Assembly: GCA_963768055.1 (NCBI GenBank)
Contig: CAVYGN010000002.1
Coordinates: 640,001-704,000 of the forward strand
Direction of reading: 5' to 3'
Length of the DNA stretch: 64,000 nucleotides
Source of the DNA: an uncultured Spirochaetota bacterium
GTDB taxonomy: Bacteria > Spirochaetota > Brevinematia > Brevinematales > JAOACQ01
The notes under the pieces are model-generated. The model worked only from the letters and a program-made list of their open reading frames with translations. It did not search any database and was not told the DNA's origin. This document shows positions 672 through 55,129 of this stretch, piece by piece (position 1 is the stretch's first letter; every line of letters begins with the position of its first letter). The position numbers and the translations under genes are program-made.

Positions 672-2938
672 CCATCATCCCGTTTTTCAGAACCGGCTAT
701 TAAATTAAGCGCGCTCCCGGCATTGAACCATTTGATCTGTATTTCATTATAAGTATGCTTTAGGTTTATTTCTTCCCGGCCTTTTATTCTGTGCTGTATA
801 ACCATTAATAAATCCTTACCCGGTGAAAAGTTTTCCAACCCGAGAATATCGATAAAATCTCCTTCCCTGATCCTGTTATAATCAGAGGGATCAGCAAAAG
901 TTAATGCAAGAATACCCTGTTTTTTCAGATTTGTTTCATGAATACGGGCAAAACTTTTCACTATAACCGCCAGGCCGCCTAAATAACGCACTTCCATAGC
1001 TGCATGCTCCCTGCTCGAACCTTCTCCATAATTTTCATCCCCGATTATTACCCAATTAATCCCCTCTTTTTTATATTCCCTTGCAACCCAGGGTATAGAC
1101 CCCTCATCTCCGGTAATTTCATTTTTCGTAATCCCGGTTTTTCCGGTAAAAGCATTGACAGCCCCTAAAAGAAGGTTGTTTGAAATATTGTCAAGATGCC
1201 CCCTGTATTTAAGCCATTCGCCTGCCATTGATATCTGGTCAGTTGTGCATTTACCTTTAATTTTAATTAAAATCGGCACATTAACGATATCTTTACCGTT
1301 CCAGGGTTTAAACTTCTGCAGAAGCTGAAGTCTTTCGCTATTTTTCCTAATAATGATCTTCTGATCATGGCCGGGTTTTGTTTTAACTATTCCAATACGA
1401 GGATTGTCATAAAAGAAATCGGGGATTTCCCTGCCTGAAGGAGGAGTTAATTTTATCTTTTCACCCTTGTTCCCGATCAATTCATCGGCAGCGGGATTAA
1501 AAGAAAGACTTCCTCCGAGTGAAAGGGCCATAACCATTTCCGGACTTGCTACAAAAGCTAATGTTTTAGGATTGCCGTCAGCTCTTTTTGAAAAATTCCT
1601 GTTGAAGGATGTAATTATTACATTTTCATCTCCCATCGGTATATCATTCCTTTTCCACATACCGATGCAGGGACCGCATGCATTTGCGAGAATGATTACG
1701 CCAAGCTTTTTAAAAACTGTAAGAATACCGTTCCTTTCCAATGTCGCCCTTACTTTCTCCGAACCGGGGCTAAGGTATAAACGCGTCTTAGGCCTCAATC
1801 CATGCTTAAGCGCCTGTCTCGCAATACCGGCGGCCCTATCCATGTCCTCGAAACTTGAATTGGTGCAACTTCCGATCAAACAGGCGCTGATTTTATCAGG
1901 GAATCCTTTTTCCCTGGAAATATCTCTCATAATGGATACCGGATTAGCGATATCGGGAGAAAAAGGACCATTCATTTGGGGTTCAAGTTTGTTAAGATCT
2001 ATCTCAATGACCCTGTCGTAATATTTTTCCGGTTCGATAAGGACCTCCGGATCTGCGCAAAGATTTTTTTTTAAAGGCTGGGCCATTAATACTTCATCAT
2101 TCCTCCCTACAGCAGTTAAATAATCGCTGATTTTATCATCATAAGGGAAAATAGATGAAGTAGCGCCCAATTCCGCTCCCATATTACAAATCGTCGCTTT
2201 ACCTGTAGCCGATAATGAAGAAACGCCTTCACCGAAGTATTCGATAATCGATCCGGTGCCGCCATTCACAGTCAGGATGCCAAGCAATTTTAAAATAATA
2301 TCTTTAGGCGAAGCCCAACCGCTTAATTTTCCTGTAAGCTTTACTCCCAGCAAAAGGGGCCATTTCAACTCCCAGGTCATACCGGCCATAACATCAACGG
2401 CATCGGCACCGCCGACTCCGATCCCCAGCATACCTGTTCCGCCAGCATTAGGAGAATGGGAATCAGTGCCGATCAAGAGCCCTGCCGGAAAAGAATAATT
2501 TTCTAAAATAAGCTGGTGAATAATTCCGGAACCGGGTTTCCAGCATTCAATTCCGTATTTAAGAGAAATACTTGAAAGGAAATCGTAGACTTCCTTATTT
2601 ATCTTTAAAGCTGCGGGAAGGTCAGTCTTTACACCGCATTCGGCAATGATCAGATGATCGCAGTGGACTGTCGCGGGTACCGCGGTTTTTTTCATTCCGG
2701 CATGGATAAACTGCAATAATGCCATCTGAGCTGTCGCATCCTGCATCGCTACTCTGTCAGGACAGAGATCGGCATAATCGATACCACGGACCAGCGGTTT
2801 AAGCGGTTTATTCGAAAGGTGGGAATAAAGGATTTTTTCAGCGTATGTAAGAGGCCTTTCAGTTATTAGCCTGGCATTTTCTATTCTTTTAATAAAACCC
2901 GAATAAAGCTTACTGATAATCTCCAAGTTCCTTTTCAT
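668..2938 (-). CDS. acnA: Aconitate hydratase, mitochondrial-type single-chain AcnA
   Basis: DRVAMQDATAQMA, HCDHLI, GTDSH, IGSCTNSS, NACGPCIG, GSSREHAA; 756 aa. Confidence 0.95.
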   Translation of the reverse strand: MKRNLEIISKLYSGFIKRIENARLITERPLTYAEKILYSHLSNKPLKPLVRGIDYADLCPDRVAMQDATAQMALLQFIHAGMKKTAVPATVHCDHLIIAECGVKTDLPAALKINKEVYDFLSSISLKYGIECWKPGSGIIHQLILENYSFPAGLLIGTDSHSPNAGGTGMLGIGVGGADAVDVMAGMTWELKWPLLLGVKLTGKLSGWASPKDIILKLLGILTVNGGTGSIIEYFGEGVSSLSATGKATICNMGAELGATSSIFPYDDKISDYLTAVGRNDEVLMAQPLKKNLCADPEVLIEPEKYYDRVIEIDLNKLEPQMNGPFSPDIANPVSIMRDISREKGFPDKISACLIGSCTNSSFEDMDRAAGIARQALKHGLRPKTRLYLSPGSEKVRATLERNGILTVFKKLGVIILANACGPCIGMWKRNDIPMGDENVIITSFNRNFSKRADGNPKTLAFVASPEMVMALSLGGSLSFNPAADELIGNKGEKIKLTPPSGREIPDFFYDNPRIGIVKTKPGHDQKIIIRKNSERLQLLQKFKPWNGKDIVNVPILIKIKGKCTTDQISMAGEWLKYRGHLDNISNNLLLGAVNAFTGKTGITKNEITGDEGSIPWVAREYKKEGINWVIIGDENYGEGSSREHAAMEVRYLGGLAVIVKSFARIHETNLKKQGILALTFADPSDYNRIREGDFIDILGLENFSPGKDLLMVIQHRIKGREEINLKHTYNEIQIKWFNAGSALNLIAGSEKRDDG

Positions 2939-2950
2939 AAATTTCTTCGC

Positions 2951-4426
2951 TCATCTTGATTTTAATGTGGGGAACAGTATCGTATCCCTTATTGAATTAG
3001 TATCGATAAATAACATTATAAGCCTGTCTATACCGATACCCATACCCCCTGTAGGAGGCATTCCGAATTCGAGGGCATTAATATAATCCTCATCCACAAA
3101 CATCGCCTCATCGTCACCCTGGGCCTTTTTCCTGGCCTGGCTAAAAAATCGATCGGCCTGGACGATGGGATCATTAAGTTCAGAAAAGGCATTACCCAAT
3201 TCCCTTCCGACGACATACGGTTCGAATCTTTCAACAAAATCAATGTCATCTTCCTTGTTTTTGGAAAGAGGGGAAATTTCAGCGGGATATTCATAGATAA
3301 TTGTTGGAGATATAAGGTTAGGCTCTACATATTCTTCAAAAAGGACATTCAATATTCCCCACTTTTCTTCATACTCTTTTATATTATCGAATCCTCGTGA
3401 AAGCGCTAATTCAAGGGCGTCTTTCTGGTCCCTTATATCTTTAACATTAATATTGGCAATATTTTTCAGGGCGTCAACATATTTTATCTTTTCCCACTTC
3501 GAGAAATCAAGGCTCATGCCCTGATATTCAAAAACAGGTCCGCCTTTTATCGTAACAGCCAGTTTCATCATTAATTCTTCAAACAAGGAAATCATATCCC
3601 GGTAATCCGCATAAGCCTGATATAGTTCCAGCATAGTAAATTCTGGATTATGCCGCGTATCAATCCCTTCGTTCCTGAAATTCCGGTTAAGTTCAAAAAC
3701 CTTTTCAAACCCTCCTACAATAAGTCTTTTAAGATATAACTCAGGAGCTATTCTGAGGAAGAGGTCCATATCCAGGGCATTATGATGTGTAATAAAGGGT
3801 TTCGCGGCCGCTCCTCCGGGGATTGTCTGCATCATTGGGGTTTCAACTTCAAGAAAACCCTTTTCAGTAAGTATCTGCCTCAAACAGGAAATAATTTTGA
3901 AACGGGTAAAAAAATCGGATTTAACCTTGTCATTTACAATTAAATCAAGGTATCTCTGCCTGTACCTGACCTCGACATCAGTAAGGCCATGCCATTTTTC
4001 AGGTAAAGCGTTGAGAGATTTTGCAAGTATTTTGAAATCTTCAACAATGACAGTAATCTCCCCTTTATGAGTTTTAAATACTTTTCCCTTTACACCTATC
4101 ATATCCCCCGGGTCTACAAGTTTAAATAGCGAAAACTTTTTATCTCCAAGAATATCCTGGCGGGCATAAATCTGGATCTGTCCCTTCCCATCTTTAACAG
4201 TTGCAAATACGGCTTTGCCGAAATCCCTGAGAAGCATTACTCTGCCGGCAATATCCGTCTTAAATTCAGCCTCGTTATTTTCAATAAAATTTTTTTTAAT
4301 ATCTTCTGAATAGCTCTCAGCCCTATAGAAATTAGGGTATGGATTAACATTAGCTTCTTTTAAAGCCATTAATTTTTTTAGACGGCTTTCCCTTTCATCC
4401 GTTATGTTTATATTTGATGAATCCAT
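2951..4426 (-). CDS. lysS: Lysine--tRNA ligase, class II
   Basis: RYRQRYLDL, LRIAPELYLKRL, FRNEGID.RHNPEFT, GMGIGIDRL. Confidence 0.98.
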   Translation of the reverse strand: MDSSNINITDERESRLKKLMALKEANVNPYPNFYRAESYSEDIKKNFIENNEAEFKTDIAGRVMLLRDFGKAVFATVKDGKGQIQIYARQDILGDKKFSLFKLVDPGDMIGVKGKVFKTHKGEITVIVEDFKILAKSLNALPEKWHGLTDVEVRYRQRYLDLIVNDKVKSDFFTRFKIISCLRQILTEKGFLEVETPMMQTIPGGAAAKPFITHHNALDMDLFLRIAPELYLKRLIVGGFEKVFELNRNFRNEGIDTRHNPEFTMLELYQAYADYRDMISLFEELMMKLAVTIKGGPVFEYQGMSLDFSKWEKIKYVDALKNIANINVKDIRDQKDALELALSRGFDNIKEYEEKWGILNVLFEEYVEPNLISPTIIYEYPAEISPLSKNKEDDIDFVERFEPYVVGRELGNAFSELNDPIVQADRFFSQARKKAQGDDEAMFVDEDYINALEFGMPPTGGMGIGIDRLIMLFIDTNSIRDTILFPTLKSR

Positions 4427-34838: not shown

Positions 34839-35363
34839 ATGAAACGAAAATACAATTACACATGGCTTAACGAAGGGGTCAGAACATTTTTGAGGGATTC
34901 AATCCCCTCCGTGCATTATTTTTCAGCGCTTCTCAGGAAGAATTGGCATGAAATTGTCGGAAAGGCAATGGCCTCACATTCAACGCCAATGGGTGTATAT
35001 AATAAAGTATTGACAGTAAACGTTGACGACCCGATCTGGATCCAGGAATTTACTTTAAATAAAGATGAAATCAGGAATAATATAATAAATTTCTTCGGGG
35101 ATAAATCCTTGACAGGAGTTTTCGATTCCATCAGGTTTCAGAACGGTGAGATAAAAGGTCATCTTCCTGTCAAGAAAATCAAATTCACCGGCAGGGTCGA
35201 CCCAAATACTCTGAAAAAGATCGATGAAACCCTGAAAAATTTAGAAGATAAAGAATTGAAAGAAGCCCTGAGGCATTATTTTATCCAGTCCCAGCTTAAA
35301 TTTTCGGAGGGCGGTATTCCTGGATCACAATCTGTTCCCCAATTTCATTCGAAAGACGGGTAA
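34839..35363 (+). CDS. DUF721/DciA-family protein
   Basis: W.EIVG..MA.HS.P......L.V.V..P.W.QE pattern. Confidence 0.8.
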   Translation: MKRKYNYTWLNEGVRTFLRDSIPSVHYFSALLRKNWHEIVGKAMASHSTPMGVYNKVLTVNVDDPIWIQEFTLNKDEIRNNIINFFGDKSLTGVFDSIRFQNGEIKGHLPVKKIKFTGRVDPNTLKKIDETLKNLEDKELKEALRHYFIQSQLKFSEGGIPGSQSVPQFHSKDG

Positions 35364-35889
35364 TTTCATATCTTTCTACGATCCCTGTTACAAGGGTTGT
35401 CCTAAACTGGTGCGGAATTCCGCTTTTCAGGATGAGCCCGATGGAATCCTTTATTTTTTCAAGATCGACCGAATCAAGGCCGACTGTTTTACCATATTTG
35501 CTGAAAATGTTTTTAATATCCATTGCCACGAAAGAGAGCAGGCCCCTATTTAAATATCTCTTCAATATACCGGGCAGATAACCGTTAGTATCAAGTTTTG
35601 TTAAAAACCCGTTTTTTAAACACCATTCAAAGAAACCGGCAAGTCTTTCCCCCCAGATAGTGGGTTCCCCGCCGCTCACACATATCCCACTGATTTTTCC
35701 CTTTTTCGATATCAGGAAAGCCTCGATATCCTCTTCAGCAATTTCAGGGATTTTTTCGTACAATTCCGGAACAATAAGGTCCCTGTTTTGACACCATGGG
35801 CAGCGGAAATTACAACCCGCGGTAAAAACAGTGGCGGCAATCTGTCCCGGAAAATCTATTAATGAAATTTTCTGAATTCCCCTGAACAT
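35296..35889 (-). CDS. nrdG: Anaerobic ribonucleotide reductase activating enzyme
   Basis: SLIDFPG, GCNFRCPWCQN, SGGEPT, KLDTNG, MDIK, FRTT. Confidence 0.93.
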   Translation of the reverse strand: MFRGIQKISLIDFPGQIAATVFTAGCNFRCPWCQNRDLIVPELYEKIPEIAEEDIEAFLISKKGKISGICVSGGEPTIWGERLAGFFEWCLKNGFLTKLDTNGYLPGILKRYLNRGLLSFVAMDIKNIFSKYGKTVGLDSVDLEKIKDSIGLILKSGIPHQFRTTLVTGIVERYEITRLSNEIGEQIVIQEYRPPKI

Positions 35890-35897
35890 CTCTAAAA

Positions 35898-36050
35898 TTA
35901 TTTGAAAAGGAGCTTATCTTCGTAAGTATTTCTCTCGGAAAATTCCTGCTGCTTACCGATGTTCCAATGCTGGACCGGCCTGTAATACCCGACTATCCTG
36001 GAATAAACCTCTGTCGGTATAACCAACCGCTTTTTTTCCTCTTGTTCCAT
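35898..36050 (-). CDS. Stand-alone 50-aa NrdD glycyl-radical domain
   Basis: TEVYSRIVGYYRPVQHWNIGKQQEFSER; AGGAGAGGAG SD ending 10 nt upstream of ATG 36050. Confidence 0.85.
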   Translation of the reverse strand: MEQEEKKRLVIPTEVYSRIVGYYRPVQHWNIGKQQEFSERNTYEDKLLFK

Positions 36051-36093
36051 GTGTTTGCTTCTCCTCTCCTTAAAATCTGCTTTAAAACTATGA

Positions 36094-38193
36094 TTACATA
36101 TATTTTCCATATTTAAGTAATTCTTCATCCGTATGGGGCAGGGGACAGATCCACTTTTCCCCGGAAAGATAGCCATGGACCGGGCAAACCGAGAAAGTCG
36201 GGGTAATGGAAAAATACGGCAATCGATACTGGCTTGCTACCGTTTTAACCATTTTCGCTATTATATCCGGGTTTTCGACTTTTTCACCGAGAAAAATATG
36301 TATTACCGTTCCTCCGGTAAACTTAGCCTGTAAAGGATCCTGGTGGTCAAGCAGCTCAAAAATATCGTCAGTGGCATTAACCGGAAGGTGGACGGAATTG
36401 GTATAATAAGGGGCATCCTGCGTTCCTGAAGAAATGATATCCGGGTGTATCCGTTTATCGGCTTTTGCAAGACGGAAACTCGCACCTTCAGCGGGAGATG
36501 CTTCCAGGTTATAAAGATTACCCGTTTCCCGTTTGAATTCCTCAAGGACCTCGAGGGCAAAATCAAGGACTTTCATGGCAAAAGTCCTGCTCTCCTGGGT
36601 GTTATAAGGTTTTTTTAGAAAATTCATGACTGCTTCATTCATGCCGATCATACCTATTGTAGAAAAATGATTGGTCCAGTATCTTCCGCTTCTTTTTTTT
36701 ATATCGTTCAAATAAATACGCGTATATGGATAGAGGCCTCTGTCCGTCAGGTCCTCTATTACTTTCCTTTTCATCTCCAGGGAATTTTTCGATATCACCA
36801 TCATCTGTCTGAATAAAACGAAAAATTCTTCTTCATTAGAAGCCGAATAAGCAATCCTGGGAAGATTGATAGTCACAACCCCGATAGAACCCGTCATTGG
36901 ATTGGCGGCAAATAACCCTCCGCGTTTACCCAGGGGGTTCTCATCGCTCCCGGTCAGGCTCATTCTGTCAAGCTGAGCCCTTACTTCTCTATTATCCAGC
37001 TTAAGCCTGCAGCACATACTCCTTGTATCTTCCTCATTCATATCAGAATTGATAAAATTGCTGAAATAGGGGGTTCCGTACTTCGCCGTCATTTCCCATA
37101 TCTTTCTATAAGCCGGATTTTCCCAATCAAATGTCTTGGTAATATTATAAGTTGGGATCGGAAAGGTGAATGGCCTGTTTTTTGCGTCTCCTTCAAGCAT
37201 TACCTCTGCAAAAGCCTGATTTATCCAGTCCATTTCAAGTTTAAATTCCGAATATGATTCATCCCTTATTTCTCCGCCGATTATTACTCCCTTATCTCTG
37301 AGATAAGAAGGGCAGACAAGGTCGAAGGTTAAATTCGTGAAAGGGGTTTGAAATCCGGTCCGTGTCGGCACGTTGAGGTTAAAGACGAATTCCTGTATAG
37401 CCTGCTTAACCTCTGACATTGTCAAACCGTCATACTTTACAAGCGGCGCAAGAAGGGTGTCTATATTGGCAAAAGCTTGAGCTCCTGCCGCCTCACCCTG
37501 GAGAGTATAGAAAAAATTGACTATCTGACCCAGCGCCGATCGAAAATGCTTTGCCGGTTTACTTTCCACTTTGCCGGCAACCCCACCGAAACCCTGGATC
37601 AGGAGCTGTTCAAGATCCCATCCGACACAATAAGCGGAAAGGGACCCAAGATCATGAATATGTACGGCCCCGCTTCTATGCGCTTCACCGATATCCGGTG
37701 TATATATTTTTGTAAGCCAGTAATTAGCGGTTATTGTTGACGATACATGTGAATTCAGGCCCTGGAGGGAATAGAACATATTAGAATTTTCGTTTACCCT
37801 CCAGTCCCTCAGATGAACATAATCTTCAATCATGTTAAGACTTTCATTGAGAGTTTTCGTTATATTCCTTATTTCGCTCCTTTTCGCACGGTAAAGAATA
37901 TATGATTTCGCCGTCTTTCTGAAGCCCATATTCATAAGAGTATCTTCTACCATATCCTGTATATGTTCTATCTCCACAACTTTATCATCAAGCTTGCTTA
38001 TTACCATTGCGGTAATTTCCCAAGCCTGGTTATAATTGCCTTCACCCGTCGCTTCAAAGGCCTTGCTGACTGCTACTGCTATTTTTGAGACATCGAAGTC
38101 GGCTATTCTGCCGTCCCTCTTCTTTACGAAAGCGCTTTGATTATTTGATTTTTTTGACTGGACCAGGTCTTTAACAAGCTGCTCCATCTTCAC
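36094..38193 (-). CDS. nrdD: Class III ribonucleoside-triphosphate reductase lacking its glycyl-radical tail
   Basis: ATP-cone (VKKRDG), HIHDL, YCVGW, SMCCRL, PAEG, CPVHG metal site; no RxxGY loop before the stop; start may be ATG 38187. Confidence 0.95.
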   Translation of the reverse strand: MKMEQLVKDLVQSKKSNNQSAFVKKRDGRIADFDVSKIAVAVSKAFEATGEGNYNQAWEITAMVISKLDDKVVEIEHIQDMVEDTLMNMGFRKTAKSYILYRAKRSEIRNITKTLNESLNMIEDYVHLRDWRVNENSNMFYSLQGLNSHVSSTITANYWLTKIYTPDIGEAHRSGAVHIHDLGSLSAYCVGWDLEQLLIQGFGGVAGKVESKPAKHFRSALGQIVNFFYTLQGEAAGAQAFANIDTLLAPLVKYDGLTMSEVKQAIQEFVFNLNVPTRTGFQTPFTNLTFDLVCPSYLRDKGVIIGGEIRDESYSEFKLEMDWINQAFAEVMLEGDAKNRPFTFPIPTYNITKTFDWENPAYRKIWEMTAKYGTPYFSNFINSDMNEEDTRSMCCRLKLDNREVRAQLDRMSLTGSDENPLGKRGGLFAANPMTGSIGVVTINLPRIAYSASNEEEFFVLFRQMMVISKNSLEMKRKVIEDLTDRGLYPYTRIYLNDIKKRSGRYWTNHFSTIGMIGMNEAVMNFLKKPYNTQESRTFAMKVLDFALEVLEEFKRETGNLYNLEASPAEGASFRLAKADKRIHPDIISSGTQDAPYYTNSVHLPVNATDDIFELLDHQDPLQAKFTGGTVIHIFLGEKVENPDIIAKMVKTVASQYRLPYFSITPTFSVCPVHGYLSGEKWICPLPHTDEELLKYGKYM

Positions 38194-38221
38194 CCCTCCC
38201 GATAATATAAAACGGCTTTTT

Positions 38222-38932
38222 CTAAATTTTCATAATATTTACCACCGATATGACAATGAATATGATTATTGTTACAAGCGCGCCTGTTAGAATCAGGTTT
38301 TCTCTGTTCCTGATTAAATAATTAACATTTTTCTTTTCGAAAAGATAGATTTTGTTCTTGCCATGAGGAATGATGAATATAATATTGATTAAAAGAACAG
38401 ACAATAGAAGGACAATATCAGGTATCCGCCGGTTAAATGCCTTTTCTATTATATCCTTCAAAAAAAACATGTAAATAATAAAAAAAATATCGCAGATCGA
38501 AATAATGTAATTAAAAATCTTTTTCCTGAAAAAGCGGAAAATATTTCTTAATTCTATTATTTTTTTGATCTCGGTATACATTTTTTTTAGTTTCTGAGAG
38601 CTGGAATCTGATAAATAAATGTTGCAACTCGAAGGAGATATATCAAGTATCAAATAGGGCTGTTCTTTTCCTGTTTCTTCCTGAACGTTAAAATAAAACG
38701 AATGATATTCCTTTTTCTTAAAATTATCATTTTTAATCAGAATTTCAAGATCTTCCGAATTATTAATTTCATCCTCAAGGCTATAACCCCCTATCTGATA
38801 TACAATTCCGGGAAAATAAGATTTTGTGATTTTAATAAATTCAACTATATCTTCTTTATAAAGGGTCAGCATAAATGGCGAAAATGAAAAGGTATAATAT
38901 GAATCACGGCTGCTGACCGATCTTCCCCTCAT
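38222..38932 (-). CDS. Hypothetical membrane protein (three C-terminal TM helices)
   Basis: 236-aa ORF with a GGGGAG SD, co-oriented 28 nt upstream of nrdD. Confidence 0.65.
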   Translation of the reverse strand: MRGRSVSSRDSYYTFSFSPFMLTLYKEDIVEFIKITKSYFPGIVYQIGGYSLEDEINNSEDLEILIKNDNFKKKEYHSFYFNVQEETGKEQPYLILDISPSSCNIYLSDSSSQKLKKMYTEIKKIIELRNIFRFFRKKIFNYIISICDIFFIIYMFFLKDIIEKAFNRRIPDIVLLLSVLLINIIFIIPHGKNKIYLFEKKNVNYLIRNRENLILTGALVTIIIFIVISVVNIMKI

Positions 38933-39056
38933 TAAAAAACACTCCCCTTAACAAATTTTTTAATTTTTAAAGAAATAGGATTTTATAACTAATTATATTT
39001 TATTTCACATTAAATATCTATAATTTTTAAAAAATGAATGTTTAAATTCCCTTTCC

Positions 39057-41897
39057 TCAGGAAGAAGAGTCCGGTTTCTTTATCTCCTGCAGGTATTTTT
39101 TTAAAAAGATCCCTGTATAAGATTTCTTGTCTTTCAATATATCTTCCGGTTTTCCTTCAAAAACTATAAACCCGCCCTTGTCGCCGCCTTCCGGCCCAAG
39201 ATCTATAATCCAGTCAGACACTTTTATTACATCCATGTTGTGCTCGATGACTATAACTGAGTTCCCCCTGTCGACCAGCGACTGAAGAACATTTATAAGT
39301 TTTTTTACATCATCGAAATGGAGTCCGACTGTAGGTTCATCGAGAATATAAAGAGTTTTGCCTGTCCCTATCTTTGACAGTTCCTTGGCAAGTTTTATTC
39401 TTTGAGCTTCGCCTCCGGAAAGCGTAGTTGCGGCCTGGCCGAGGTGAACATAGCCCAGGCCTACATTTTTCAATACTTCTATTTTTCTCTTTATATTCGG
39501 GATATGCTCGAAAAATGAAAGGGCTTCATCAACTGTCAATGCAAGAACATCGGCGATAGATTTCCCTTTATATTTGATTTGAAGTGTTTCCCTGTTATAT
39601 CTTCTGCCCCCGCAGACATCGCAAGTCAGGTATACATCCGGCAGAAAATGCATTTCCACCTGTATTAAACCGTCTCCCTGACATGCTTCACACCGCCCCC
39701 CTTTTACATTGAAGCTGAACCTGCCGGCTTTATAACCCCTTGCCTTTGCTTCTGGAAGACCTGTAAAAAGGTCCCTGATCTCTGTAAAAACACCTGTATA
39801 AGTAGCCGGGTTGCTGCGCGGCGTCCTCCCTATAGGGCTTTGATCGATGTCTATAATTTTATCGATATTCTCGGCCCCATGGATCTCTTTATATATACCC
39901 GGTATGCATTTAGCTCTGTTGACGCATTTGGCAAGGGCCATATATAAAATGTCGTTGACAAGGGTTGATTTTCCCGATCCGCTGACCCCGGTTATAGCGA
40001 TAAACTTTCCGAGGGGAAAATCCACATCGATTTTTTTCAGATTGTGCTCCTCTGCGCCTACTATCCTTATGAATTGACCGCTGCCCTCCCTTCTCGCCGG
40101 GGGCATTTCGACAAACAAATCTCCGGAAAGATACCTTCCCGTCAGGGAATTTTTATTCTTTTTAATCTGGCTGAATGTGCCTTCGGCGACAAGATTACCC
40201 CCGTAAATCCCTGCTCCCGGGCCGATATCGACCACCCAATCCGATCTTGAAATAGTTTCCTCGTCGTGTTCGACTACAAGAACGGTATTTCCGGCATCCC
40301 TGAGTTTTTCAAGGCTCAGTATCAAACGGTCGGTGTCTCTCGCATGAAGGCCAATAGTGGGTTCATCAAGGACATACAACACCCCCATCAATCCCGATCC
40401 GATCTGTGAGGCCAGTCTTATTCTCTGAAATTCTCCGCCGGAAATCGTACTCACTTTCCTGTCAAGGGTTATATAATCAAGTCCGACATCTATAATGAAT
40501 TGTAATCTTTTTTCTATCTCTTTCAGGATCCTTTCAGCTATTATTATCTCGCTTTTACCCAGGGTTTTCGAAAGTCCGGAAATGAATTGAAAGGATGAAG
40601 CTACATTCATTCTTGTAACTTCCATGATATTTTTAGCCGATACGATCACCGACAGGCTTTCTTTTTTAAGCCTTTCACCATTGCAGACCGGGCATTTTAT
40701 AGATTCCATATACTGTTCCAGCCATTCCCTCATGTCCATAGACTGGGTTTCAAAATACCGCCTTTTAAGGTTGGGTATTACGCCCTCATATTGCGACATT
40801 GTTTTGAAATCAAACCTGTCGCTGGTATAATGAATTTCTACCCTATCGGTGTCCCCATTCATGATCAAATTCCTTATGGTTTTCGGGAGCTCTCTATAGG
40901 GTTTATCCATGGAAAAACCGTATTTTCTCGAAAGGGCGTTTAAAAAACTTAACCAGTGGCCCTGAGTAGGGGGGTGGCTTTTAAGCGCCCCGTCGTTAAG
41001 GCTTTTATCAAAATCAACAAGCAGTTCCTCGTCAAACTCAAGCTTTTCTCCAAGTCCGCTGCATTCAGGACATGCCCCATACGGAGCATTGAAGGAAAAC
41101 ATCCTCGGTGAAATTTCACTGAAGCTTATATTATGGTCAGGGCAATAATAGCGTTCAGAATATATCTTTTCCTCTTTTGTATCTATGAAAGACAGGGTTA
41201 AGAGTCCATCGCCGTAATGGAGTGCCGTTTCAACCGAATCGGTAATCTGGGTCCTGTATTTTTCATTTATAGAAAGCCTTGTGATCACTATATCTATATT
41301 ATGCTTTTTGTTTTTATCGAGCTTGATATCGGACTCCAGCTCGATAATCTCGCCGTTTACCCTGACCCTGGCAAAACCCTCCTTTCTTAATTCTTCCAGA
41401 ATATCAGCATGCGTGCCCTTTTTACCCTTTACAACCGGGGCCATGATCATAAACTTCGTCCCTTCCTGTGTTTTCATGATCGAATCTACAATTTCATCGC
41501 TGGTCGTCGAGGTCAATATTCTTCCGCATACCGGACAGGTTGGCGTACCGATCGTACCCCATAATAGCCTGAAATAATCGTATATTTCAGTAACTGTTCC
41601 CACTATAGATCTCGGGTTGGCATGAACGCTTTGCTGCTGAATTGAAATGGCCGGAGACAAGCCGCCGATATACTCGACATCCGGTTTTTTCATCTCGCCA
41701 AGAAACTGCCTGGCGTATGTTGAAAGCGATTCCAGGTAACGCCGTTCACCCTCAGCATAAATTGTGTCGAAAACGAGGGATGATTTACCGCTTCCTGAAA
41801 CCCCGGTAAAGACCACTAGTTTATTTCTAGGTATTTCAATTGAAAGGTTCTTTAAATTATGTTCTTTTGCGCCTTTAATAACGATTTTTTCAACCAT
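39057..41897 (-). CDS. uvrA: Excinuclease ABC subunit A
   Basis: Two GVSGSGKS motifs, zinc fingers, [24 protein letters not shown]. Confidence 0.98.
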
Positions 41898-54271: not shown

Positions 54272-55129
54272 TCATTGACCATTTTTGATTAGTTCGGCGA
54301 TATCTTTGTGTCCATATCTCAAAGCCTCGTCCTCCGGCGTTTCGCCATACTTATCTTTAGCATTCACATCGGCGCCCTTGGAAATGAGAAGTTCCGCTAT
54401 ATCTTTAAATCCTTTGATCGATGCCCTGTGCAGCGGGGTATAACCGTCAGCATCTTTCGCATTGATGTCTGCACCATTGGAAATGAGAAGTTTTACAATA
54501 TCCTTGTGACCGCGAAACGATGCCTGAAGCAGAGGGGTATTGCCATTTTTATCTTTAGCATTGATGTCGGCGCCTCTTGAAATTAGAAGCTCCAGGATAT
54601 CTTTATTCCCATATAGTGAAGCCTCTATTATTGGAGTGTTTCCGGATTTACTTTTCGAATTAACGTCAGCGCCATTAGATATAAGAAGTTCCGCGATATC
54701 TTTGTACCCATAGCGTGAAACCACTAACAATGGGGTATAGCCAAAATTATTTTTTGCATTGACTGCAGCACCCTTTGATATGAGAAGTTCCACGATATCT
54801 TTGTGCCCATTAAAGGATGCCTTTAACAGCGGGGTATCGCCAAGCGCATCTTTCGCGTTGACATCGGCGCCCTTATCCATCAATGCTCTAACCTGATCCA
54901 TTCTGCCGTTACTGGCTGCCCGCATCAAAGGCGACCAGCTCGCATAACTTATAAAAATAAAAGCACCGGCTAAAGCAAAAATAATGAAAACAAAAATCAC
55001 AATCCATTTTATTTTTTTCCCAATTTTAATATCTTTTTTTGTTCCGGTTTTAAATAAAAATGCCATCAAAGCCGCCTTTAACAATAGGATTTTATATTTA
55101 AACCCTGTTAACAGCTTTAATCCAGTCAA
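54272..55129 (-). CDS. Membrane-anchored ankyrin-repeat protein (7 repeats); start uncertain
   Basis: TM helix, then 33-aa G.TPL..A...G.KDI.ELLIS.GAD.NAK units, also visible as ~99-bp DNA repeats. Confidence 0.92.
   Translation of the reverse strand: MTGLKLLTGFKYKILLLKAALMAFLFKTGTKKDIKIGKKIKWIVIFVFIIFALAGAFIFISYASWSPLMRAASNGRMDQVRALMDKGADVNAKDALGDTPLLKASFNGHKDIVELLISKGAAVNAKNNFGYTPLLVVSRYGYKDIAELLISNGADVNSKSKSGNTPIIEASLYGNKDILELLISRGADINAKDKNGNTPLLQASFRGHKDIVKLLISNGADINAKDADGYTPLHRASIKGFKDIAELLISKGADVNAKDKYGETPEDEALRYGHKDIAELIKNGQ

Follow-up and report, generated by a model that had tools for sequence, protein, structure and literature searches.

To our knowledge, in every glycyl radical enzyme (GRE) that has been studied the radical glycine belongs to the catalytic chain, and in the anaerobic (class III) ribonucleotide reductase (RNR) NrdD, where the glycine loop lies in cis, O2 cleaves that chain at the glycyl radical. 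The closest described systems to the locus reported here are the single-chain NrdD enzymes with their activase NrdG, represented by structures from T4 (1H78/1H79), T. maritima (4COI/4U3E) and P. copri (8P23) and by the families NF006126 and TIGR02487. Here we describe an nrdD locus in a window of 64,000 nucleotides from an uncultured Spirochaetota bacterium (assembly GCA_963768055.1, contig CAVYGN010000002.1, positions 640,001 to 704,000; window coordinates count from the first letter of this stretch). It encodes the same domains in the same order, with the same NrdG2-type activase directly downstream, but the chain is interrupted after the metal site and before the Gly loop, and the loop and the C-terminal tail are carried by a separate 50-aa product. 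A further difference from single-chain NrdD lies in the metal site, which reads CxxH...CxxxH rather than four Cys. The locus very probably encodes a two-polypeptide class III RNR and its activase, with the radical loop docking in trans.

A small free-standing version of the radical-bearing C-terminus of a GRE has a counterpart in GrcA (YfiD), a protein of about 127 aa. GrcA is described as a spare part of pyruvate formate-lyase (PFL), which duplicates the radical C-terminus and is activated by the radical S-adenosylmethionine (radical-SAM) activase of PFL (PMC8683613), and a 2026 review states that, among GRE classes, spare-part proteins are known from the formate lyases only (PMC13450708). 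The product described here resembles GrcA in being such a small free-standing version, a 50-aa open reading frame (ORF) with its own Shine-Dalgarno (SD) sequence and ATG that covers the last 30 positions of PF13597. GrcA belongs to the PFL-type Gly_radical family, whereas the 50-aa peptide matches only PF13597. Moreover, GrcA backs up a full-length PFL with a loop of its own, whereas the peptide is, as far as the 64-kb window extends, the only loop of its enzyme, the adjacent NrdD having none.

Among RNRs, the class II enzyme NrdJa/NrdJb of Pseudomonas aeruginosa and others is reported to have its catalytic subunit on two consecutive ORFs whose products must associate (PMC9669993; PMC3653736). 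It is of another RNR class, and what its split separates from the barrel is a Zn-finger/IscU-like region for reductant delivery at the C-terminus, not the radical element. Phage nrdD genes are described in pieces owing to group I introns or inteins (for example in T4), along with one fragmented phage nrdD left unexplained by the source (PMC3653736). Intron- and intein-borne pieces are rejoined by RNA or protein splicing, whereas the 43-nt spacer found here holds neither intron nor intein and the second gene has its own translation signals. A full-text literature search, in which few subscription journals were covered and a description elsewhere is possible, returned no published account of a free-standing NrdD Gly-loop subunit.

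Two adjacent genes tile one full-length NrdD

On the minus strand of the window, nrdD is followed by the 50-aa gene and then by nrdG, with gaps of 43 nt and 8 nt as traced from the sequence and its ORFs (Table 1). On the PF13597 profile, NrdD occupies positions 1-526 of 562 and the peptide positions 533-562 (E 8.7e-10); on NF006126, of 684 positions, the two occupy 4-654 and 651-682. The only fused close relative, of 765 aa (locus L005; relatives are numbered L001 onwards) aligns in the same way, its residues 1-699 with NrdD residues 3-699 at 75% identity and its residues 721-762 with peptide residues 7-48 at 79% identity. Because these alignments abut, the two genes tile a full-length enzyme with nothing missing or duplicated; only the 21-residue linker of L005 is replaced in the window by a stop, a spacer and a start. 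NrdD remains homologous to its relatives, in its own frame, through its last residue. Two adjacent and separately translated ORFs together correspond to one full-length homologue, and the correspondence is kept across species, which is how split RNRs are recognised. An RxxGY motif on the same polypeptide is absent from NrdD taken by itself and present when the two ORFs are taken as a pair.

A sequence-only reading that preceded this work had described nrdD, the spacer, the SD sequence, the peptide gene and nrdG, and every coordinate and sequence detail in it agrees with the window. Its statement that the glycyl-radical domain had become a separate gene needs narrowing: the Gly loop and the C-terminal tail are detached, and the predicted metal-binding half of that domain stays on NrdD.

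The large chain consists of an ATP-cone, a ten-stranded barrel with its finger loop, and the putative CxxH...CxxxH metal site, without the Gly loop. The barrel is matched by PF13597 (NRDD) over residues 135-685 (E 4e-171), and the whole chain scores 977 bits against NF006126 (cutoff 548) and 480 against TIGR02487 (cutoff 326). Its relatives in the PDB are 4COI, 4U3E, 8P23, 9D3X and 1H78. The chain contains SAYCVGW as well as RSMCCRL, and the SMCCRL finger loop is invariant in 36/36 large chains and 16/16 fused relatives; by homology, the thiyl-radical cysteine would be one of the Cys pair in this motif. The metal motif CPVH...CPLPH is conserved, but two of its would-be ligands are His, not Cys. 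Among the large chains aligned, conservation is 90% or higher at C670, H673 and C683 and complete at P684, and comparison with the Zn site of solved NrdDs suggests that C670, H673, C683 and, probably, H687 bind the metal. The C-terminus, ...FSVCPVHGYLSGEKWICPLPHTDEELLKYGKYM followed by the stop codon (also written ...CPVHGYLSGEKWICPLPHTDEELLKYGKYM), lies 16 residues past the last Cys and includes no RxxGY loop. Because of the L005 alignment and the upstream GGGAGGGG, the ATG at 38187 (697 aa) appears more likely as the start of nrdD than the GTG at 38193.

The peptide has the sequence MEQEEKKRLVIPTEVYSRIVGYYRPVQHWNIGKQQEFSERNTYEDKLLFK, in which the loop S17-R-I-V-G21-Y-Y-R-P25 is followed by the tail W29-N-x-G-K-x-x-E-F-x-E-R40. 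Fifteen positions are invariant across 36 small proteins (P12, E14, Y16, S17, R18, G21, Y22, Y23, R24, P25, N30, G32, K33, E36 and R40). In a Pfam scan (E<=0.01) it matched PF13597 and not the PFL-type Gly_radical family. Purifying selection acts on the small ORF: over 40 core codons, in comparisons with 16 relatives (a seventeenth, which the pattern did not match, was left out), the proportion of synonymous differences (pS) is 0.74-0.99, which is saturated, and that of nonsynonymous differences (pN) 0.08-0.30. No second copy of the peptide, other NrdD or other Gly-loop sequence was found within the 64-kb window.

The SD sequence AGGAGAGGAG sits 10 nt before the ATG of the peptide at 36050, and the peptide reading frame stays open back to 36176, overlapping the 3' end of nrdD. 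An Rfam scan of the whole window brought no family to threshold and no riboswitch or recoding element. Across 35000-39100, a promoter and terminator scan found 16 promoter-like sites against 10.8 +/- 3.1 expected from shuffled sequence, which is not clearly above expectation. One such site lies inside the 3' end of nrdD and does not amount to evidence for a promoter of the peptide gene's own. The activase reaches 159 bits against TIGR02495 (NrdG2; cutoff 131), also matches PF04055, and carries its radical-SAM motif as C26-x3-C30-x2-C33.

Table 1. Features of the split nrdD locus, in window coordinates
Feature	Position	Strand	Details
nrdD, large chain	36094..38193	-	699 aa from GTG 38193; stop TAA 36096..36094
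ATP-cone	37873..38130	-	NrdD residues 22-107; PF03477, E 9e-22, profile positions 2-88 of 88
Finger loop SMCCRL	37003..37020	-	NrdD residues 392-397 (RSMCCRL, 391-397)
Metal site kept on the large chain	36133..36186	-	C670-P-V-H673 ... C683-P-L-P-H687, from sequence
Promoter-like site GTGAAA-16-TATAAT	36260-36287	-	10/12 match; inside nrdD 3' end, ~210 nt upstream of peptide ATG
Spacer, nrdD stop to peptide start	36051..36093	-	43 nt; Shine-Dalgarno AGGAGAGGAG at 36070..36061
Gly-radical peptide gene	35898..36050	-	50 aa
Gly21 codon	35990..35988	-	GGG
nrdG, activase	35296..35889	-	197 aa; start 8 nt past peptide stop
NrdG radical-SAM motif	35814..35791	-	

Separate genes are a conserved state

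A search restricted to proteins of 27-88 aa, in a set of 5.8 billion proteins, returned 35 small homologues of 49-65 aa that are 58-90% identical to the peptide, several of them on contigs of 25-743 kb. A genome scan with the alignment of small proteins then matched at least 600 stretches, of which 440 were confirmed as relatives; the best 80 were kept and classed by tblastn and ORF tracing. In this set, picked by likeness to split-type peptides, nrdD and the peptide are separate ORFs at 43 loci and fused at 29, and at the remaining eight the fetched flank of the peptide gene contains no nrdD, one of these (L045) lying at a contig end where it cannot be judged. Split loci fall in Spirochaetota (14), Thermodesulfobacteriota (7), Aquificota (3), Chloroflexota (3), Fermentibacterota (2), Deferribacterota, WOR-3, Saganbacteria and Aminicenantes, in the archaeal Iainarchaeota (2) and in unclassified metagenome-assembled genomes (MAGs), that is, in at least eight named bacterial phyla and one archaeal phylum. 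The split extends through the whole Brevinematales neighbourhood of the window, with the complete genome CP053071.1 (L008) among its carriers, and the isolate Thermosulfurimonas dismutans S95 (L013) has it as well.

The 43 split junctions resemble ordinary gene boundaries. The nrdD stop codon is TAA in 23, TGA in 12 and TAG in 8; the frame offset between nrdD and the peptide is 0, 1 and 2 in 13, 17 and 13, respectively; and the spacing runs from a 41-nt overlap to 222 nt, with 1.2 kb in L001 and ATGA overlaps in L043, L063, L078 and L079. GGAG, GAGG or AGGA stands 5-18 nt upstream of a candidate start in 41/43 (the exceptions are L024 and L078), and nrdG follows the peptide gene in 39/43, with a median gap of 6 nt. 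In L001, the closest relative of the window, an IS630-type transposase ORF (2857-3924; DDE_3 and a helix-turn-helix domain) has landed between the nrdD stop and the peptide ATG (L001:2790-3998), and the genes on either side are intact. An insertion sequence (IS) element in this position would be tolerable only if nrdD and the peptide gene are independent genes.

Separate genes are accordingly a conserved state, and the three-gene arrangement of large chain, Gly-loop peptide and NrdG is genuine. The suspicion voiced in the sequence-only reading that this layout is widespread is borne out by the small homologues, the split loci and the profile matches given below. That reading had also named findings that would count against it. 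Relatives with one continuous ORF do exist, but are not the rule among the best 80 loci; a +1 shift fusing the two frames is excluded as a conserved trait by the offsets, and NrdD is homologous to its last residue.

Fused relatives were also recovered directly, a search among longer proteins yielding 53 fused NrdDs, of which the best is the L005 protein and the others are 51-84% identical over the loop. L005 keeps GAGGAGGG-N4-ATG inside its linker (L005:3940-3985); it is probably, to judge from this remnant, a split gene that lost its stop, and translation from the internal start could still yield a free peptide.

Three further observations concern nrdD in the relatives. In L002, a close relative, the gene lies in two frames (L002:2649-2665; query residues 9-285 and 280-699), which we take as a frameshift or an assembly error. 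In L015, L016, L023 and L076, nrdD is interrupted for ~1-1.2 kb near query residue 283, between two collinear matches; the interruption looks like an intein, and several long database NrdDs carry intein/Hint Pfam domains. A search of a phage collection with the peptide gave two records, of which one was examined; at this search sensitivity no phage-borne free peptide was seen. The phage examined (L081; MT835493.1, 1530-4850) has a fused NrdD of 802 aa with a C-terminal glutaredoxin-like CPNC domain, a thioredoxin-reductase-like ORF after it and nrdG upstream.

Breadth, phylogeny and junction types

A profile built from the 36 small proteins and run against 1.84 billion cluster representatives gave 4960 matches at E<=1e-3 and 2386 at E<=1e-10. 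Among the best 150, 149 are 48-109 aa long and one is 223 aa. In a set of 182 small proteins, 176 begin with M, and NrdD metal-site sequence precedes the loop in none of the 182, which indicates that they are not contig-end fragments. The ESM Atlas holds 30 look-alike clusters, the representatives of the top three being 47-50 aa long with 60-121 members. In databases these small ORFs receive the automatic names NrdD or NRDD-domain protein.

A tree of 64 large chains (the window and 63 loci; nine loci with fewer than 550 aligned residues and the eight peptide-only loci were left out) was made by a quick IQ-TREE search under LG+G4 and is unrooted, so that the direction of change is unreadable. 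It places the window among Brevinematales, with 84% identity to L001. The split or fused state changes at least ten times on this tree, fused and split loci occur as sisters (for example L005 and L004), and forcing the 39 split rows into one clade costs 1279 log-likelihood units and is rejected (p-AU 8.6e-5). That the split appears repeatedly and independently suggests a natural seam of the enzyme in the linker that joins metal site and Gly loop.

In every case the break lies in this variable linker, and four junction types can be told apart relative to the metal site. In type A, found in Brevinematales including the window, the chain ends after CxxH...CxxxH and an EELKKYGKY segment, 11-22 residues past the metal site. 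Type B, in Thermodesulfobacteriota, Aquificota and allies, has an extra acidic tail on the large chain after the YG segment and ends 29-51 residues past the metal site. In type C, seen in two MAGs of Iainarchaeum (L024:3980-4150 and L040:3980-4171), the peptide starts M-x-x-C-G-K and thereby brings the Cys that corresponds to the fourth metal ligand in fused relatives (L018: ...KCGKRTEVYSR), and the metal site would here be completed across two chains. In type D, confined to one Spirochaetota clade (L035:3700-4501, L038:3780-4465, L064:3730-4480, L060:180-658), the large chain ends in a helix-like EKEARLREEI..LERELAE and the peptide starts with a helix-like ..KEAKLAELK..L, segments whose pairing may form a coiled-coil tether. 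Past loop and tail, the L035, L038 and L064 peptides run on for ~100-130 residues that contain a CPNC motif and match glutaredoxin/thioredoxin Pfam families weakly. L060 contains in addition a degenerate tandem copy of the peptide gene (L060:277-440; VVYRIGCRE for IYSRVVGYYR) between nrdD and the intact peptide gene.

The two sides of the break also differ in charge: the large-chain tail is net negative in 35/41 and the peptide N-terminus net positive in 31/41, counts made without a control and with the start of L079 mis-picked. It shows most clearly in the Thermodesulfobacteriota/Aquificota clade and only faintly in the window (-1 and 0), and charge complementarity between tail and N-terminus is a lead only.

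Peptide genes away from nrdD

Seven loci (L012, L017, L022, L032, L033, L053 and L077) have a peptide gene without nrdD or nrdG in the fetched flanks (2-4 kb upstream), in unrelated contexts. Two of them share a MAG with a split operon, L022 with L010 and L032 with L024, and L032 adjoins a rubrerythrin gene. In L033 and L053, a ~195-aa form of the peptide lies beside a PriCT_2 primase gene.

Proposed mechanism and alternative explanations

We propose that the three genes are co-transcribed and that a strong ribosome-binding site of its own drives translation of the peptide. The ATP-cone, the barrel, the metal site and the Cys finger loop would come from the large chain; the peptide would add the buried radical loop (Gly21 in SRIVGYYRP) and the C-terminal tail lying across the barrel. 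Docking is predicted to be non-covalent and inside the barrel, at the place that the cis loop takes in an ordinary NrdD. NrdG with S-adenosylmethionine would then abstract the hydrogen of Gly21, and the glycyl radical would generate a thiyl radical on the SMCC loop, from which nucleotide reduction would proceed as in single-chain NrdD. In P. copri NrdD, cryo-electron microscopy and hydrogen-deuterium exchange are reported to show a mobile cis glycyl-radical domain, ordered in one monomer only and disordered with dATP (PMC11226230), which makes a detachable version physically plausible.

Several points weigh against this two-polypeptide enzyme, probable as we hold it to be. Synthesis of the peptide, its binding to NrdD and its radical are predicted here from the genes. 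A PDB sequence search with the single peptide and with the peptide profile gave no match even at E 10, so the docking mode is predicted from the homology of fused relatives, and structures were mapped through full-length alignments. The relatives are mostly MAGs, and the way in which the 80 loci were picked makes 43/80 an overstatement of the split share among NrdDs at large. The fused state is viable too, as L005 and five other fused forms inside a mostly split clade attest.

Two explanations would remove the split altogether. That the window, a single unverified sequence, carries a sequencing or assembly error or a decaying pseudogene is the least credible of all, with the same layout in 43 independent loci, among them a complete genome and an isolate genome, with the small ORF under purifying selection and with nrdD and nrdG intact and above curated cutoffs; recurrence, junctions and selection together rule it out. 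Programmed recoding, by frameshift or stop read-through, would yield a single-chain NrdD and could draw on the peptide frame being open to 36176, inside nrdD, and on the 13 of 43 split loci in which both genes share a frame, several with a single stop between them. It is nonetheless highly improbable: the frame offsets are evenly spread, all three stop codons are used, gaps reach 222 nt and, with the IS element, 1.2 kb, the peptide genes have their own SD and ATG, NrdD keeps its homology to the last residue in its own frame, and the window holds no Rfam element. A conserved frameshift or read-through is excluded by this variety of junctions.

The other two explanations take the split as real and differ on why it persists. 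It may do so because a peptide cut by O2 is cheap to replace, because NrdG reaches the loop more easily, or by neutral drift. Neutral gene fission, in which a stop and a start arose in a dispensable linker and left an obligate, permanent complex without benefit, is quite possible, if short of probable. The constant position of the break in the variable linker, the ten or more state flips on the tree with fused and split sisters, and the start signals left in the linker of L005, by which transitions look easy, all fit it, and NrdJa/NrdJb is a reported precedent (PMC9669993). Persistence over at least eight named bacterial phyla and one archaeal phylum speaks against it, as do the lineage-specific additions at the break (long acidic tails, helices, orphan copies), which seem to go beyond what a transient neutral state predicts. 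Alternatively, the split may have been selected because O2 would destroy only a 6-kDa peptide, a fresh copy of which would join the intact 80-kDa chain as with GrcA/YfiD, and NrdG may activate the peptide off the enzyme. This idea, already put forward in the sequence-only reading as a replaceable radical subunit, would refine rather than exclude the two-polypeptide enzyme, and we entertain it tentatively. The large chain is the kind of product that O2 cleavage is described as leaving in cis enzymes (PMC3019208), the peptide gene has a strong SD of its own, and GrcA proves the principle in another GRE (PMC8683613). The seven peptide-only loci add a little, with L022/L010 and L032/L024 sharing MAGs with a split operon and L032 lying beside rubrerythrin, but binning may have misjoined such second copies to their genomes, and the window itself has one copy. 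Replaceability and a role of the split in limiting O2 damage are drawn by analogy with GrcA/YfiD; the apparent tethering in types C (the metal ligand on the Iainarchaeum peptide) and D (the paired helices) argues against free exchange there; and many carriers, judged by name only, are strict anaerobes of hot, reduced habitats. It is a rather unlikely proposition, in our estimate, that the peptide is a diffusible, consumable protein cofactor, loaded by NrdG on or off the enzyme, inserted into any NrdD barrel that is ready and replaced by a fresh copy once O2 scission has released its two fragments, with carriers that tolerate transient O2 and orphan copies that serve as extra supply. If true, spare-part or trans-radical systems would for the first time be known beyond the formate lyases, and the peptide would offer a natural minimal substrate with which to study how the activase gains access to a buried glycine.

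If the two-polypeptide enzyme is correct, class III RNRs that take their radical loop in trans would be widespread, recurrent and apparently unstudied. The field has yet to explain how the buried loop gets out of the barrel to meet the activase and how cells deal with O2 scission, and a natural free 50-residue loop would be a ready system for docking, for activation on or off the enzyme, for labelling of the radical site by peptide synthesis and for repair by exchange. For annotation, hundreds of small 'NrdD fragment' ORFs and truncated-looking NrdDs are probably functional partners, not pseudogenes.

Neighbouring genes

A 236-aa ORF (38222-38932, minus strand) ends 28 nt upstream of nrdD and may belong to the same operon; it has no Pfam match and a hydrophobic C-terminal half, and is kept at the same position in L003, L004 and L005 at 33-41% identity. 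At the other end of the locus, the 3' end of nrdG overlaps by 68 nt (35296-35363) the 3' end of a convergent DciA-family ORF (34839-35363, plus strand). Farther away, the window encodes an ankyrin-repeat protein of 285 aa that consists almost wholly of repeats (54272-55129, minus strand), among housekeeping genes for aconitase, PolA, ValRS, RpoD, DnaG, UvrA, AlaRS and GuaA.

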